DNA from: a virus
Taxonomy: Duplodnaviria; Heunggongvirae; Uroviricota; Caudoviricetes
DNA: 64,000 bases
Virus record (IMG/VR): IMGVR_UViG_3300012344_000014
Location: 42,581 to 106,580 of that record
Strand: one strand, 5' to 3'
In this document: piece after piece, positions 1-64,000 of the stretch
How positions within the stretch are numbered: position 1 is the first letter of the stretch
How the letters are laid out: each line of letters begins with the position of its first letter
The notes under the pieces: model-generated
Told to the model about the DNA's origin: nothing
Seen by the model: only the letters and a program-made list of their open reading frames with translations
The model's database searches: none
Made by a program: the position numbers and the translations under genes

Positions 1-204
1 AGCCGGTTCAAGACGAAGATCGACAACGAGAAGCTGGCGTTTCTGGAGGGAGATGAAGAGATCGCCTATATCAGCAACAACAGAATGTATATCACAGAGG
101 CGAACGTGACGAACAAGCTCACGGTAGGCGCGAAGTCGCTGGGCGGCGTATGGGAATGGGAAGCCGTTACCGCGGGTATGGGACTTAAATATAAAAGGAC
201 GTAA
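1..204 (+). CDS. 3' end of a phage structural protein gene whose start lies upstream of the window
   Basis: Open frame from nt 1 to TAA at 202-204. An RBS (aggaag) and ATG at 219 follow. Confidence 0.4.
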   Translation, partial: SRFKTKIDNEKLAFLEGDEEIAYISNNRMYITEANVTNKLTVGAKSLGGVWEWEAVTAGMGLKYKRT

Positions 205-218
205 AGGAAGTGTAAGGC

Positions 219-1601
219 ATGAGCGTTGAGCAAGAAACCGAGGGTTGGATTAAGGTACAATACGACACCTTAAAACCGGGGGAAAAACAGACAATAACAT
301 TTGGCGGAAACATGAGGTGGCTATATAACCATCTGCGGTTTAATGTCGGCGGAAATGAGTACGACCGGATGTACACACACGACATGGAGGGTATTTTTAC
401 ATTCATCATCCCGGAGACGCTGACGGAATCCTGCTCGGTGCTGGTCACGCTCAGCATTATTGCACCGGACACAGAGCGTACGCTGGCGACGAAGCAAGTC
501 CGGTTCAATGTGGAAGTGCCGCCTAAGGAAGCAGTTACGATCCCCAGCGCTGTATTCGGCATACGGAACCTGAGCGGCGGCGCGGCGGAGCAATGGGAGC
601 TGCAGGACGGTGCGCTTTACTGCATCCGCAAGATGAGCGACGTTGTAGTTACGGCAACATTCAAGGCGGGGTATTACCACTTCGGCGACCTTGCGGTATC
701 GGTGGGGCGCTATTATAAATCCTTCTCGGTCAAATACACGTCCGACGGGGAGCTTGACTCGATACCGGCCTCGTATGATGCGGTGCCGGAAGCATCCCGC
801 AACAGCTGCGTGTATGGCAACAAAACCCAGTTGACCGTGCGCCATGTGTTCGAAAAGATTGACATCTTCGGCGACGAGGTGCGGTGCTACGCGTCGTCTA
901 CAGATTCGGCGAAACGGCGTGTAATAACGGAGGATGTAACGTTCGAAGTTGCCAGCTCCACAACGGGGGTCGATTTCCCAGGGCCATGGACGGGGAAGAC
1001 GCTGAAGGTGCTCGACTACAGTTCGCCCTCGATCTATGACATAAAAGCATACCGAAGCACAGAAGACGGGCTGCCAGACGACGAGAGTAATCACGTGAGC
1101 GCGAGCTGCAGCGTAAACATTTACTCGTTGGGTGAGAAGAACGCGCTGGAGCCGGCGGTAAGCGGCGGGAAAGTGGTGGAAGTCGAATTCCGGACGGTTG
1201 GCGATGAGGCGTGGACGGCGCTGGGCACGCAGGACGTGGATATTACGCAGACCTATGCGGTGGAATACCCAACAACAGAAGACCCTGTGGTGCATGAGGT
1301 GCGGGTTACAGTAAGCGATAAGCTCTCGACAATATCGAAGATCACAACACTTTCCTCGGGTGTATATCCGATTTTCTTCCCAGCCGGCGGGCGCGGGGTA
1401 TCTTTCGGGATGATTGGGAACGAGCAGGACGCGGTGCAGATTTCGGGGGACTGGAAGATGTATCATGGCGTCGGCACGACAAAGCGGGAACTGACGGACG
1501 CGTTCCTCCGAAGCGAAATCTGGACGGGGACGTCGGAGCCTTCTGACAGCTATGTACTGCCGAAAGGCTATCTGTACCTGCAGCTGGACACGGGGGAGTA
1601 A
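219..1601 (+). CDS. hypothetical tail/baseplate-associated structural protein (460 aa)
   Basis: Long ORF with RBS, first gene of a co-directional tail-fibre operon. No recognisable catalytic motif. Confidence 0.6.
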   Translation: MSVEQETEGWIKVQYDTLKPGEKQTITFGGNMRWLYNHLRFNVGGNEYDRMYTHDMEGIFTFIIPETLTESCSVLVTLSIIAPDTERTLATKQVRFNVEVPPKEAVTIPSAVFGIRNLSGGAAEQWELQDGALYCIRKMSDVVVTATFKAGYYHFGDLAVSVGRYYKSFSVKYTSDGELDSIPASYDAVPEASRNSCVYGNKTQLTVRHVFEKIDIFGDEVRCYASSTDSAKRRVITEDVTFEVASSTTGVDFPGPWTGKTLKVLDYSSPSIYDIKAYRSTEDGLPDDESNHVSASCSVNIYSLGEKNALEPAVSGGKVVEVEFRTVGDEAWTALGTQDVDITQTYAVEYPTTEDPVVHEVRVTVSDKLSTISKITTLSSGVYPIFFPAGGRGVSFGMIGNEQDAVQISGDWKMYHGVGTTKRELTDAFLRSEIWTGTSEPSDSYVLPKGYLYLQLDTGE

Positions 1602-1606
1602 ACGAG

Positions 1607-2620
1607 ATGGCGCTATATATTGGAAACGCGGACAACAAACCACAATATGTGGCGGGGCTGTTTTACGGCGACGCAAACAACAAACCTGTACGCGTAGTCG
1701 CGGGGTGGATTGGCGACGAAAACAACAAACCCCGGCTGTTCTATTCGCCAAACCTGGAATACACGGTAGACGCTTACGGCGCGGACTGGTGGGGCGGAGA
1801 ATTCTATATTAATATGCTGAACGTGAGCGGTGGCACAGGCCGATACAGATACAAGTTCACGCTGACAGTTGAAGGGAAAGACCCGCTTGTTTACGAATCA
1901 CCGGAGCCGACGCGGGCAACCTCATGCAGCCACACGTTTACGCTGCCGAATGCTGGCACCTATGCGACATGGGAAGCGACAGTTATGGACGCGGCTAACG
2001 CGCATTGTATGGGGAGCCAGAGCGGCCGGTTCGATGTGGTGCGGGTGCCGTTTGTTATGGGGTGTGAGGCGGCACAGATCAACCTTTATGCGAATGGCGT
2101 ATGGAAGGCAACAATTTACAGCAATGTTCTGAAAAACTACGACAGGAACAAAGCGAAAGCCAGCGTCAAAGAAGTAAACGACGACCTGACGGTAGAATGT
2201 TCGATCGATTATTATGACGAGAATTACGCCAGCCCGGAGGTATGGTTTACGGCTGAAAGTCCTGGTACATACAGGTTGGAGTATTTAACGCTTACGACCT
2301 CTAGAGGGGTAACCGCTACGGCTGGTTCTGGCGCGACCATCTCGGTGTACGTCAAATCAAAAACAGTTACCAATGTCGTCAACTTCTATGGTTCGTCTCC
2401 GCAACTTTACTTTAATGCGAACGAGGACACGCCGTCCATGGAATATGTAGACGCGGTATACGGTGTCACCAAGGTCAACAGCAAATGGTATTCTTTCAGC
2501 CATACGCTTGTCTATCAAAACGGTGACCTGTGGGACGGCAGTTATATTGGAACATTGTACTTCCTGGCTTCTGATTTCTACGGCGAGATCATACCCAGCA
2601 TGGACGTATATTACAGTTAA
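1607..2620 (+). CDS. hypothetical tail-associated protein with N-terminal NNKP repeats (337 aa)
   Basis: ORF tightly coupled to the upstream gene. Repeated '..NNKP..' motif; structural-module context. Confidence 0.6.
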   Translation: MALYIGNADNKPQYVAGLFYGDANNKPVRVVAGWIGDENNKPRLFYSPNLEYTVDAYGADWWGGEFYINMLNVSGGTGRYRYKFTLTVEGKDPLVYESPEPTRATSCSHTFTLPNAGTYATWEATVMDAANAHCMGSQSGRFDVVRVPFVMGCEAAQINLYANGVWKATIYSNVLKNYDRNKAKASVKEVNDDLTVECSIDYYDENYASPEVWFTAESPGTYRLEYLTLTTSRGVTATAGSGATISVYVKSKTVTNVVNFYGSSPQLYFNANEDTPSMEYVDAVYGVTKVNSKWYSFSHTLVYQNGDLWDGSYIGTLYFLASDFYGEIIPSMDVYYS

Positions 2621-2629
2621 GGAGGGTGA

Positions 2630-62421: not shown

Positions 62422-63501
62422 TTACGCCGAGTGGTTCAGCTGCTTCCATTTCTTCGCCGGCATGGACAGGACGTCATAGCCGATGCTTTCCAGCTCGGAG
62501 GCGCGGTCGTAGCTGGGCACATCCTGACTGAAGCGGGTGACGGCGTTGCTCAGGCCGTACAGGCTGAGATCGCCGCCATGAATGAGGTAGCTGAGGACGC
62601 TCTCGCTTTCCTTTTTGCCAATGGCATATTCCTTGGCGGTGAGCTCGACGAAGGCGGGGATGCTTTCGGCGGTGATCTTCGCATCGCGGGCTTCCTGCAT
62701 CATGGCGACCACCTTATCAAACTGCGTCTCATCCACAATAGCGCGCACGGTATCACGCACCTTCAGCATGAACGCGCGGTCGTCCGCCGTAATGGTTTCA
62801 TCCGCATAGAGCGCATAGTCTTCGCCCTGCTGGGCTTTGGCCCCAATATGACGGCGCTTCTGCGCCGCATCATTTACAACTATGCCGTTGGAACACACCA
62901 GCCGATAGACGAGCGGGGAGGCTTCGAAACTGCCGAGGCCGACCTCCGAATTGGTGATGCAGATACCGGACTGCACAACGTCGCCGGGGGTTACGTCCGC
63001 CTGAAGGCGCGGGTTGACGGCCTTGATATACAGCTTGCGGTCGGTGACCTCGCAGCTGGCGATTTGCACATCCTTGATTTCGCCGAGGATGGGGAGGACG
63101 ATGTTGGCGATTTCGTAGTTATCGATGCGGCGATAACGATCGGAGAGGAAGGCGCGGGCAGTGTTATCCAGCGTGCGCACCATGCGGCGGCGCTCCTTTG
63201 CGTTTTCGTCGCGTGCCCAGTTCCGCATCCAGTGGTTGACATTGGTGGCGAGCAGGCCGGGCGCATCGCTGAGCATCCGGCGATAATAGGGGAGCGGAAT
63301 GCCCATCTGCTGACCAATTTGCTGGTGGGCGACTTCGTTGACGTGAAAAGCGTAAGCGCTGTTATCGATGTTCAGGCGGACTTCATCGGTTACATCAAGC
63401 CCCATGGTGAGCTGCGCGGTATCGACAAGATAGTCGCGCTTAGCATTGTTCTGGCGTTCGATTTCCTGCGCGAGTTCCATCAGGGTGCGGCCGTACTTCA
63501 T
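62422..63501 (-). CDS. DUF932-family phage/ICE protein
   Basis: Length and pattern resemble the DUF932 family; no catalytic assignment. Confidence 0.5.
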   Translation of the reverse strand: MKYGRTLMELAQEIERQNNAKRDYLVDTAQLTMGLDVTDEVRLNIDNSAYAFHVNEVAHQQIGQQMGIPLPYYRRMLSDAPGLLATNVNHWMRNWARDENAKERRRMVRTLDNTARAFLSDRYRRIDNYEIANIVLPILGEIKDVQIASCEVTDRKLYIKAVNPRLQADVTPGDVVQSGICITNSEVGLGSFEASPLVYRLVCSNGIVVNDAAQKRRHIGAKAQQGEDYALYADETITADDRAFMLKVRDTVRAIVDETQFDKVVAMMQEARDAKITAESIPAFVELTAKEYAIGKKESESVLSYLIHGGDLSLYGLSNAVTRFSQDVPSYDRASELESIGYDVLSMPAKKWKQLNHSA

Positions 63502-63516
63502 ATTTATACGCTCCTT

Positions 63517-63720
63517 TTAGAATGAATATTCATATTCGACGTGCAGGATATCCTGCGGCTCGATTTCCAGATCGGGATCGTCAGTCAGTACCGCGTCCTG
63601 ATGTTCGAGCACTTCCTCCTTTGCTTTATCGGTTATGTCGTAGTCGTTCATGCCATCGTTTGCATCTTCGACATACACCCGGTAGAACCGGCGGATTTCA
63701 ACTGTGACTACGTGGGTCAT
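63517..63720 (-). CDS. hypothetical acidic protein (67 aa)
   Basis: ORF track; ATGA coupling. Confidence 0.4.
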   Translation of the reverse strand: MTHVVTVEIRRFYRVYVEDANDGMNDYDITDKAKEEVLEHQDAVLTDDPDLEIEPQDILHVEYEYSF

Positions 63721-63998
63721 TCCGCGAGCGCCTCCTCTTTTCCGTTCTTCCGTTCCGCGTCATAGGAGAGAACTAGCATCGCGCCGGCGGCCTTATCCTC
63801 TTCGGGCACGGCGGGGTCGCTCATGCGGCGGCGGATTTCGGCCTCGAGCGCTTCCTTGGCCGCGACTGCGGCGTTGACGAGCAGCTGGCCTTCCTCGTTA
63901 TCGGTGATTTCGCCGCGCTCGATCTTCTCGAACAGTTCGTGGTTCTGTTCCAGCTGCTTGATGAGTTCGTAGCACAGGTCGATGAAGTTTTCAGGCAT
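63717..63998 (-). CDS. hypothetical protein (93 aa)
   Basis: ORF track; start at the window edge. Confidence 0.4.
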   Translation of the reverse strand: MPENFIDLCYELIKQLEQNHELFEKIERGEITDNEEGQLLVNAAVAAKEALEAEIRRRMSDPAVPEEDKAAGAMLVLSYDAERKNGKEEALAE

Positions 63999-64000
63999 GG

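Follow-up and report, generated by a model that had tools for sequence, protein, structure and literature searches.

UAG is very likely a rare leucine codon in the phage described here, to judge from comparative sequence data, and it would be read by a phage amber suppressor tRNA, tRNA(CUA), of tRNA-Leu descent that is charged by the LeuRS of the host. The window analyzed, a 64-kb stretch of DNA, is part of a 112-kb metagenome contig. The phage is a temperate siphovirus with a genome of ~112-118 kb; SPbeta and Clostridium phage c-st are distant kin, and it probably infects anaerobic Clostridia of gut or rumen. Use of the codon is sparse: the window genes contain 23 TAGs in 19,269 codons, and UAG makes up only 1.5% (23/1,562) of the Leu and UAG codons combined. 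Tests on codon usage alone did not detect the recoding, and the evidence for it is homology and between-genome comparison. The 64-kb window contains no tRNA gene, and neither a release-factor gene nor an aminoacyl-tRNA synthetase gene was found within it.

In-frame TAG codons in the window

An earlier, sequence-only reading of this DNA took TAG to be sense in at least 17 genes. All 20 of the positions it listed are indeed TAG (or CTA where the gene is on the minus strand), in frame, and in ORFs bounded by TAA or TGA. By our count, 14 genes with internal TAGs are well supported and three tiny ORFs are doubtful; the integrase, in which TAG is the terminator, is kept apart from this count of internal-TAG genes. 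That reading named no amino acid. The principal genes are as follows.

2630..3811 (+): tail-fibre gene, 393 aa; TAG 2714 is codon 29
4548..5759 (+): repeat-containing tail protein, 403 aa; TAG 4617 is codon 24
8790..9608 (+): Gly-rich tail-region protein, 272 aa; TAG 8892 is codon 35
9883..10488 (+): CBM_5_12 tail protein; codon 11 is CTG (Leu) in the window
13849..14250 (+): signal-peptide or membrane protein; TAG 13879 is codon 11, within the hydrophobic core
15174..15488 (+): small lysis-cassette protein (phrog_4105) with an N-terminal hydrophobic segment; TAG 15216 is codon 15
15905..17527 (-): large serine recombinase (integrase); TAG 15920 is the terminator
19807..20019 (+): HicA toxin gene 1, 70 aa; TAGs 19855 and 19969
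21498..21734 (+): HicA toxin gene 2, 78 aa; TAGs 21630, 21684 and 21726
26852..27064 (-): glutaredoxin/NrdH-like CPMC redoxin, 70 aa, downstream of NrdD; CTA 26996 is codon 23
27119..27628 (-): RuvC-like resolvase; CTA 27452 is codon 59
31067..31444 (-): RemA-like protein, 125 aa; CTA 31343 is codon 34
38176..38421 (+): small two-TM membrane protein; TAGs 38272 and 38407
38548..38805 (+): small membrane protein, paralogue of the preceding; TAGs 38644 and 38722
42202..43062 (-): PAPS-reductase-family protein, 286 aa; CTA 42715 is codon 116
60045..60326 (+): third small membrane protein, 93 aa; TAGs 60096 and 60219

That TAG is read as sense is upheld on three counts: domains continue across it, it alone among the stops behaves in this way, and the sites are kept between strains. 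Pfam, PHROG, or PDB alignments span the TAGs of the two HicA genes, RuvC, RemA, the PAPS reductase, the tail fibre, and the lysis-cassette protein. The Pfam HicA_toxin domain is matched over its full length (1-58 of 58) by both toxin genes (E = 5e-14 for gene 1, which PDB alignments also cross), as is RemA-like (1-73 of 73, E = 6e-17); the RuvC match covers 7-146 of 148, and PAPS_reduct is matched over 3-173 of 175 (E = 1.3e-14) in one unbroken stretch. PHROG matches include residues 10-68 of the tail fibre and residues 9-102 of the lysis-cassette protein (profile 7-101 of 103), and the repeat tail protein matches phrog_13589. The NrdH-like redoxin has weak Pfam matches to Glrx-like and GST_N_3, the latter spanning the TAG, and the 60045..60326 protein, both TAGs of which lie within hydrophobic segments, had no family match in a profile search that included PHROG. 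In orthologue alignments across the phage family, taking the best frame, the stops crossed were 48 TAG, 5 TAA, and 2 TGA; the coordinate-checked sites in this control for stop specificity fall directly past the end of the capsid gene.

As many as eight further assemblies (L001, L003, and L032-L037) have the same TAGs. TAGs 2714 and 4617 are retained in L001 and L003, and TAG 8892 in L001; TAGs 13879 and 15216 are kept in all assemblies covering them (L032-L035), and six assemblies keep all three TAGs of HicA gene 2 and, likewise, TAG 26996. In late genes, the ATGs upstream of TAGs follow strong ribosome-binding sites (AGGAGG, AAGGAG), including AGGAGG before ATG 2630 of the tail fibre, AAGGAG before the repeat tail protein, and AAGGAGG before the 13849..14250 gene, which is directly upstream of the SpoIID/SH3 lysin. 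Standard-code calls in public databases split or shorten such genes: RuvC becomes 58 + 107 aa and RemA 33 + 91 aa, the tail fibre is called as 362 aa instead of 393, and the repeat tail protein as 269 aa instead of 403, leaving ~400 nt unassigned.

One detail of the earlier reading needs correcting. TAGs 38272 and 38644 are both codon 33 of their respective paralogues and had been taken as a conserved position, yet they occupy non-homologous columns, and the best alignment places W and L opposite them. Note that TAG 38407, only three codons before the end of its gene, could be its terminator.

Suppressor tRNA

A tRNA with a CUA anticodon, for which the sequence-only reading had proposed a search elsewhere in the phage and host genomes, is present on a contig of the same species. 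JGI contig Ga0116616_1000035 (118.6 kb) includes both locus L021 and locus L036; its L036 stretch matches the window at 99.3% identity across 12.6 kb, and in L021 it carries tRNA(CUA) in a tRNA array 3.3 kb upstream of the large terminase. The tRNA was read in contigs of relatives; in the window's own phage it is predicted to lie outside the window. ARAGORN detected four versions (L019/L021/L022/L025/L026; L027; L028/L029/L031; and L038/L039/L041), so that three further lineages of the family have tRNA(CUA) at the same place, the array lying 2.5-3.4 kb upstream of the large terminase. The stems of the four versions differ in sequence but are all fully complementary. Rfam, whose gathering threshold for tRNA is 29 bits, gave scores of 39.9, 43.0, and 47.2 bits; the L028 suppressor, which has C33, falls below that threshold.

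Among 30 phage tRNAs, the nearest neighbor of the L019, L027, and L028 suppressors is Leu(CAA) or Leu(UAA). The L027 suppressor lies between Leu(UAA) and Leu(AAG) and has a T-arm in common with Leu(UAA), and the L038 suppressor has an anticodon arm nearly identical to that of Leu(CAA) and a miniature long variable arm. The other three have no long variable arm of the kind typical of cellular bacterial tRNA-Leu. The suppressors bear A73, A15-U48, G18G19, and A20a, leucine identity elements of the E. coli type, except that L038 is without the G18G19 doublet. These four elements matter to E. coli LeuRS, whereas the anticodon and the long arm are dispensable (PMC9976931). We infer that the ancestor of tRNA(CUA) was a tRNA-Leu(CAA/UAA) of the phages themselves and that the elements required by bacterial LeuRS have been kept. 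A change of anticodon from CAA to CUA would shift the tRNA to the amber codon and leave charging unaltered, because LeuRS does not read the anticodon; host LeuRS would then load leucine onto tRNA(CUA), and the leucyl-tRNA(CUA) would compete with RF1 at UAG.

It is unlikely that the host itself decodes TAG, whether by its own code or by its own suppressor, such that the code is shared and the phage tRNA is dispensable. In its favor, no tRNA was found within 10 kb of the terminase in six MAG-borne relatives (L043-L048, L051) despite 6-19 in-frame TAGs, and TAGs also occur in early genes (RuvC, RemA, NrdH-like, and PAPS reductase). However, the remaining ~90 kb of these MAG-borne phages, outside the sampled part, could be the site of their tRNA. 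Furthermore, tRNA(CUA) has been retained in the same position by four lineages, and the 21.7-kb locus of the L028 lineage contains no other tRNA; the integrase described below also argues against a host-wide sense codon. To our knowledge, no bacterium has reassigned TAG to a standard amino acid.

Amino acid inserted at UAG

The residues that face UAG in alignments make leucine its most likely meaning, instead of glutamine, which is what genetic code 15 assigns to it. At 173 TAG sites in the family, orthologues have Leu at 693 of the 1090 aligned residues (64%, versus a background of 6.9%), with a Leu majority at 100 sites; most of the sites tallied come from lineages 60-75% identical to the window's phage, the closest lineages giving few credible ones. 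The Leu codons opposite TAG are mostly CTG, CTC, and CTT, and the excess is therefore not an effect of one-mutation neighbors. Mean BLOSUM62 scores are best for L (1.82). About one-third of the aligned residues are not Leu, and since these are mostly I, V, M, or F (244 together), another aliphatic residue or mixed charging at UAG may be conceivable.

Sites in and around the window agree. Codon 11 of the CBM_5_12 gene is CTG in the window and TAG in strain L001 (96.8% identical), a direct polymorphism between TAG and a Leu codon. The second TAG of HicA gene 1 lies in a 'GTx' column that is Leu in 33 of 47 homologues, and TAG 21684 of HicA gene 2 is in the same column. In the alignment of 38548..38805 with its paralogue, TAGs 38722 and 38644 are opposite TTA and CTG, both Leu codons. 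The RuvC TAG faces Leu in PDB 7w8d (a weak match), the RemA TAG faces Ile in PDB 7bm2, and the window paralogues of the Gly-rich protein have Q or L at TAG 8892.

Ordinary code 15, the scheme of crAss-like, Lak, and Garnet phages, in which a Gln-type suppressor would make TAG glutamine, is the sole amber reassignment so far documented in phages with a code unlike that of the host (Borges preprint 10.1101/2021.08.26.457843; PMC9523058). A few TAG sites are opposite Gln, e.g., in the Gly-rich paralogue TYTQYTITG and at L013 position 1133, but overall only 16 of the 1090 aligned residues are Gln, under the background of ~3.4%, with a mean BLOSUM62 of -1.46. In the window, TAGs occur within the cores of signal peptides and transmembrane segments, as well as in the 'GTL' column of HicA, where Leu is conserved. 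In the suppressors, G1 pairs with C72 or U72 and position 73 is A, unlike in bacterial tRNA-Gln, which has U1-A72 and G73, and the closest relatives of the suppressors are Leu tRNAs. A glutamine reading is thus highly improbable.

Two proposed roles of TAG and comparison with other systems

TAG is not purely sense, being the terminator of at least one gene. The integrase (Pfam Resolvase, Recombinase, and Zn_ribbon_recom) is called as 535 aa ending at TAG 15920; strain L035 has TAA at this codon, and as the two alternate, TAG acts as a stop in one or more expression contexts. TGA follows five codons on, such that read-through would add five residues. The claim that TAA and TGA alone occur at gene ends is thus not quite right. 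UAG would then have a dual role: termination without the suppressor, as at the end of the integrase, and read-through with it. TAGs lie within the first 35 codons of the tail-fibre and lysis (late) genes and cluster in the HicA toxin and small membrane-protein genes; this small pattern, noticed after the fact, suggests that TAG placement may gate the translation of harmful or late products.

It is very improbable that the TAGs are functional stops or attenuators, with full-length protein made by low-level read-through or never (pseudogenes or assembly errors), even though TAG is rare, often near the N-terminus, and clearly terminates the integrase: the frames remain open, and conserved, over as many as 380 codons beyond TAG, full-length domain matches cross it, identical TAGs recur in eight independent assemblies, a dedicated suppressor gene exists, and the terminase, portal, and capsid genes of the related L027 lineage themselves carry many TAGs, and essential virion genes cannot all be pseudogenes.

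The leucine reading has a laboratory precedent in E. coli supP (Su6), a mutant of a cellular class II tRNA in which the leuX tRNA-Leu(CAA) has been changed to CUA. In both cases, leucine would be inserted at amber codons after a single anticodon change from CAA to CUA, since the anticodon is ignored by LeuRS (PMC9976931); unlike supP, the phage suppressor is naturally maintained, mostly short-armed, and coupled to genome-wide use of TAG codons. UAG also means leucine in chlorophycean and chytrid mitochondria (tables 16 and 22) and in some phyllopharyngean ciliates (PMC6551751, PMC6131824, PMC11687900), where the change is likewise enabled by LeuRS not reading the anticodon. Those codes serve whole organelle or nuclear genomes, whereas this would be a viral code in a cell that presumably terminates at UAG, and UAG seems to remain a terminator for some genes of this phage. 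Phage Sup-CUA tRNAs beside theta ribozymes also sit in tRNA arrays, but Leu is absent from their predicted isotypes, which are Gln (69%), Trp (19%), Ile (10%), and Tyr (1%) (PMC10879173), and no ribozyme family was found beside the L019 suppressor.

Only TAG→Gln and TGA→Trp have been seen in phages with a code unlike that of their host (Borges et al. 10.1101/2021.08.26.457843), the former in crAss-like, Lak, Garnet, and other clades of gut phages and the latter in, e.g., Topaz (10.1101/2021.08.26.457843; PMC9523058). Like those phages, this one has in-frame stops in both structural and lysis genes and an integrase that the standard code can read, and a phage suppressor tRNA would read one stop as sense in hosts that presumably keep the standard code; recoded prophages are also known among them. 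The present phage differs in its family, an unrelated one of SPbeta/c-st-like siphoviruses of Clostridia, and in a very sparse use of TAG that reaches early and toxin genes as well. It would also differ from the TAG→Gln phages in inserting leucine by means of a suppressor derived from tRNA-Leu; if true, UAG→Leu would assign the amber codon an amino acid different from glutamine, the one reported in other recoded phages.

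The phage and its in-frame TAG codons

The window has a GC content of 53% and exactly matches a section of Logan contig SRR1747039_750 (112,235 bp). Its layout is as follows:

1-15,800, + strand: tail, tail-fibre and lysis genes, including Prophage_tail, a collagen-repeat fibre, a CBM_5_12 protein and a SpoIID/SH3 lysin
15,905-17,527, - strand: large serine recombinase, adjoining the lysis genes
Remainder of the window, - strand: early region

The early region encodes a DNA polymerase III alpha subunit with an intein, NrdD, ThyX, dUTPase, SHMT, PhoH and ClpP, together with a primase-helicase, SSB, ligase, a PD-(D/E)XK nuclease, PARP/WGR and Macro proteins, Bro/ANT proteins and AbiEii. 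By the family-specific Pfam domains YonB, YomX_C and YomU_Tube and by terminase similarity, the phage belongs to an SPbeta/c-st-like group; its large terminase shares 31% identity with the Clostridium phage c-st enzyme and 28% with the terminases of SPbeta-type phages. It has no close cultured relatives. Megablast of 20 kb against the INPHARED phages gave no match, scans of IMG/VR with the tape-measure and head proteins found no relatives, and a capsid fragment had no match in GTDB. Relatives were found in Clostridia metagenome-assembled genomes (MAGs), among them Ca. Faecivicinus, Aristaeellaceae and sheep gut MAGs, and the host assignment derives from MAG binning alone.

The sequence-only reading, that this phage reads TAG as sense, holds true. 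Recoding alone is not new: gut phages that recode amber by means of suppressor tRNAs have been well described, with TAG read as Gln, and for crAss-like phages proteomics has validated that assignment (PMC9523058; 10.1101/2021.08.26.457843). Every codon that the sequence-only reading named as an in-frame TAG proved to be one. Re-prediction with TAG as sense, using a simple model, yielded 86 genes that all terminate in TAA or TGA and together contain 23 internal TAGs, and public standard-code gene calls do split or truncate exactly the TAG-bearing genes. The HicA_toxin Pfam profile is covered completely (1-58/58) across the TAGs of both HicA genes, and the RuvC (7-146 of 148), RemA-like (1-73 of 73) and PAPS_reduct (3-173 of 175) profiles also span the TAG, as do alignments of two late proteins to phrog_4105 and a tail-fibre PHROG. 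PDB alignments cross TAGs as well, with that of the PAPS reductase ending short of the TAG column. In the late genes, strong ribosome-binding sites lie 5' of the ATGs upstream of the TAGs. The TAGs are unchanged in the close assemblies L001 (96.8% identity) and L003, and in six more at 99.3-99.8%; sequencing errors and recent nonsense mutations are thus excluded as their source.

TAG alone of the three stop codons is affected, according to both the 86-gene model and alignments over the whole family, where best-frame orthologue alignments crossed 48 TAG versus five TAA and two TGA codons, several of the crossed TAA sites lying just beyond the end of the capsid gene. A codon-usage and frame-score test for read-through in the window returned 4/6/4 sites for TAG/TGA/TAA, and 4/5/5 in a second run, but such tests are blind to recoding because codon bias is too weak at this GC content; the gain in ORF length under each alternative code is equally uninformative because removing any stop lengthens ORFs. 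TAG is rare, making up about 1.5% of Leu plus TAG codons.

Parts of the initial description did not survive. TAG was said never to end a gene; the integrase, however, ends at TAG 15920, and the codon is TAA in strain L035, so TAG still terminates at least one gene. The TAGs at 38272 and 38644 had been assigned to a conserved position in paralogues, but their columns are not homologous. Three of the TAG-bearing ORFs, 17589-17771, 19516-19680 and 41964-42122, are too small and anonymous to be included in the count. TAGs 38407 and 21726 fall inside the last three codons of their genes, the true ends of which are ambiguous because the TAG is so near.

Some further features of the phage were observed. 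The DNA polymerase III alpha gene (32578-37494, - strand) encodes 1503 amino acids and carries intein PF14890; its counterpart in the relative L033 has 1058 amino acids and is without the intein domain. The adjacent genes at 38881-40535 (- strand) specify a PARP catalytic plus WGR protein and a Macro-domain protein, which would constitute a phage-borne writer/eraser pair for ADP-ribosylation. There are two recombinases, the serine enzyme (15905-17527) and a tyrosine recombinase (Phage_integrase Pfam) at 51844-52740 in the early region. Beside the primase-helicase, a small protein (45086-45688, - strand) has a weak Sigma70_r4 match (E = 2.7e-4) and may be a sigma-like factor through which the phage could time expression of late genes or tRNAs. 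In the gene table of locus L004, an AbiEii toxin-family gene (54012-54941) and a weak AcrIC5-like match (about 56497-56709) lie among Bro-N/ANT genes; they are defence and counter-defence cargo of the early region.

The amino acid at TAG sites

TAGs of the window occur in hydrophobic contexts (the core of a signal peptide, membrane-spanning segments, the 'GTL' motif of HicA), and the amino acid was therefore tested and glutamine not assumed. Orthologues were tallied over all fetched loci, using only the gene strand and best-scoring frame, which gave 173 TAG site contexts; off-frame and antisense frames were left out because TAG there faces TAY, TGG and CAG as mere mutational neighbours. Leucine accounted for 693 of the 1090 aligned residues (64%), against a background of 6.9%, and was the majority residue at 100 of the sites; I, V, M or F made up 244, and Gln, Lys, Trp and Tyr only 16, 8, 8 and 2, respectively. 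The mean BLOSUM62 score at TAG sites was best for Leu (1.82) and was -1.46 for Gln. The codons facing TAG are chiefly CTG, CTC, CTT and TTG, which rules out an artefact of one-mutation neighbours. The Leu share is 63% in the lineage of locus L027 and 69% in the MAG lineages; in the lineages nearest the window, the Leu signal is present at credible, conserved sites. Evidence from the window itself agrees: codon 11 of the CBM_5_12 tail protein is CTG in the window and TAG in strain L001, in both HicA genes a TAG occupies a column where 33 of 47 homologues have Leu, the RuvC TAG aligns with a Leu of PDB 7w8d and the RemA TAG with an Ile of PDB 7bm2, and two TAGs of the membrane-protein paralogues stand opposite Leu codons. 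By alignment, TAG is thus shown to correspond to leucine.

Judged by sequence alone, isoleucine or mixed charging of the suppressor is less probable than leucine but may occur.

Genetic code 15, where TAG is Gln, was rejected on the 16 Gln versus 693 Leu of 1090 residues and on suppressor tRNAs that are not of the Gln type. The ARAGORN label 'tRNA-Pyl' is set by the anticodon only. The architecture of tRNA-Pyl comprises a short D loop and a 3-nt variable loop, and pyl genes and Lys-like positions go with it; the suppressors have an ordinary cloverleaf with a 9-11-nt D loop, the gene tables hold no Pyl-related Pfam domain, and only 8 of 1090 aligned residues are Lys, so pyrrolysine was dismissed.

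The phage tRNA(CUA)

No tRNA lies in the window or in 20 kb of flanking contig. The expectation that a tRNA with a CUA anticodon would be found elsewhere in the phage was borne out on a contig of the same species, JGI Ga0116616_1000035, and the gene was read there, not on SRR1747039_750. The array was reached from tape-measure relatives, via a JGI capsid relative, to the terminase of that relative. This terminase cluster, P0045, occurs on 24 contigs, and 3.3-4.4 kb upstream of the terminase gene is an array of Ser(GCU), Met, Gly, Thr and Ala tRNAs plus a 77-nt tRNA with anticodon CUA that reaches 39.9 bits with the Rfam tRNA model. Ga0116616_1000035 (118,578 bp) is one of these contigs; it encodes the SHMT protein of the window exactly, and is 99.3% identical to the window over 16,947-29,571 and 97.3% over 29,686-33,293. 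Since this contig both carries the array and matches the window, the suppressor belongs to the phage species of the window. A dedicated phage tRNA(CUA) therefore exists, and is present at the same place near the terminase in four lineages, the three besides that of the window species (represented by locus L019) being:

L027: 79 nt, 43.0 bits, one among 23 tRNAs
L028: 6918-6992, 75 nt, found by ARAGORN only and below the Rfam tRNA threshold, the sole tRNA in a 21.7-kb locus
L038: 82 nt, 47.2 bits

The L028 tRNA has C33 in place of the near-universal U33. The stems of the four suppressors differ in sequence and are all fully paired, as should be the case for a functional gene under selection. 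The MAG-borne relatives L043-L048 and L051 each have 6-19 in-frame TAGs aligned with Leu, and tRNAs of every type are absent within 10 kb of the terminase; L051 lies in a bacterial contig of 300 kb and probably represents a recoded prophage that has integrated.

In a comparison of 30 phage tRNAs, the L019, L027 and L028 suppressors each had as closest relative a tRNA with a Leu anticodon, CAA or UAA. The L027 suppressor is flanked by Leu(UAA) and Leu(AAG) and has its T-arm in common with Leu(UAA); the separate tRNA-Gln(UUG) gene of L027 is not its closest match. The D arm of L027 Leu(CAA), CAAUUGGCAGAC, is that of the L019 suppressor. The L038 anticodon arm, GAUCAG-CUCUAAC-CUGAUU versus GAUCGG-CUCAAAC-CCGAUU in Leu(CAA), differs only by CAA→CUA and one compensated pair.

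A73 is present in all four suppressors, G1 is paired with C72 or U72, and a full CCA is encoded in three, the L038 call stopping at CC. With numbering by eye, L019, L027 and L028 have A14A15, G18G19 and A20a, and their variable loops end in U (U48). The L019 D arm is GUG-C-AAUUGGCAGA-CAC and its variable loop GAGUU; the corresponding sequences, with the same A15-U48, G18G19 and A20a set, are AAUUGGCAUA in L027 and AAAGGCAGA in L028, whereas L038 deviates with AAUGCAGA, which is without the GG doublet. The variable loop measures 5-7 nt in the L019, L027 and L028 suppressors, L038 has a 13-nt mini variable arm, and the long class II arm is absent from all four. The Leu-anticodon tRNAs of phage L027 have equally short variable arms. 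E. coli LeuRS needs A73, A15-U48, G18G19 and A20a, whereas the anticodon and the long variable arm are dispensable (PMC9976931); under these identity rules, the anticodon change would leave leucine charging intact. Taken together, the nearest relatives and identity elements mark the suppressors as apparently of the leucine type. The classical E. coli supP suppressor took the same route to leucine amber suppression.

The L027 Leu tRNAs with anticodons CAA, UAA and AAG (5980-6059, 6775-6852 and 6991-7068) are 78-80 nt long and have 5-8-nt variable loops and a class I look, and the same array contains Tyr (91 nt) and Ser (88 nt) tRNAs with long arms. Short-arm tRNA-Leu genes are uncommon in bacterial systems. 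Two other types had been considered for the suppressors, Lys (A73 plus U35) and Ala (an acceptor-stem G·U and a D loop like that of the phage tRNA-Ala); both were dropped once the alignments gave Leu and the nearest tRNAs were those for Leu.

A possible codon switch

The window gene tables show neither release-factor nor synthetase genes. Host LeuRS would charge the suppressor with leucine, the charged tRNA would compete with RF1 at UAG, and the distribution of TAGs hints at regulation. Without the suppressor, UAG would terminate, for example at the integrase in a lysogen; with the suppressor expressed, read-through would unlock the tail-fibre and lysis genes, the antitoxin-less HicA toxins and the small membrane proteins. 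Five late genes have a single TAG each, at codon 11-35 (relative position 0.06-0.14), and the extra late-gene TAG of L001 is at codon 11. Fourteen of the 23 TAGs fall within seven short + strand genes that interrupt the - strand early region: two HicA toxins, three small membrane proteins and two tiny ORFs. TAG is absent from the interior of the integrase gene, whose terminator is TAG or TAA. This pattern, seen post hoc and in few genes, is in keeping with the gating model proposed for recoded phages. The idea is weakened because four early genes, all for enzymes, also carry TAG; the densest use is in the small toxin and membrane genes. The numbers are small.

The HicA genes at 19807-20019 and 21498-21734 contain two and three in-frame TAGs, respectively. 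No HicB antitoxin is recognisable nearby, ORF 21722-22252 and its neighbours being without a Pfam match, and it may be the standard code itself that keeps the toxins silent.

Family members differ in TAG use, from none at all to dozens of in-frame sites per ~5,000 aligned codons, and form a gradient of codon capture. L027 is a heavy user, with TAG crossed at 36 sites over about 5,100 aligned codons (7400-21600), including the terminase, portal and capsid genes, the species of the window has a handful, and locus L049 has none.

We tentatively propose, with confidence that falls a little short of even, that a family of temperate Clostridia phages evolved a natural UAG→Leu code through short-arm suppressors derived from tRNA-Leu, using a LeuRS blind to the anticodon, and that the codon serves as a switch. 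Among codes differing from that of the host, only TAG→Gln and TGA→Trp have been observed in phages (10.1101/2021.08.26.457843), and among 180 phage Sup tRNAs in one survey the predicted isotypes were Gln, Trp, Ile and Tyr, without Leu (PMC10879173). Full-text searches with thin coverage of subscription journals turned up UAG→Leu only in green-algal and chytrid mitochondria and phyllopharyngean ciliates, and we found no report of it in any virus or bacterium within the same scope. New here are the reading of TAG as leucine, the short-arm suppressors of Leu origin, the phage family involved, and the apparent double role of TAG.

Annotation pipelines (code 15, Mgcod, prodigal -g 15) take TAG→Gln for granted, as do proteomic searches, and would mistranslate a TAG→Leu lineage. 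The leucine code would show that a second anticodon-blind synthetase can be recruited for a viral code change, on the principle that also underlies UAG→Leu in mitochondria and ciliates and the reassignment of CUG in yeasts, and short-arm Leu-type suppressors may serve as parts for genetic-code engineering. The family is graded from nearly no TAG to heavy use, and includes a temperate phage in which TAG is apparently both terminator and leucine codon; because of this series and the dual use, a gate on lysis-lysogeny or on toxins by recoding is directly testable. If the proposed reading is true, codon reassignment would have been captured here at several stages.
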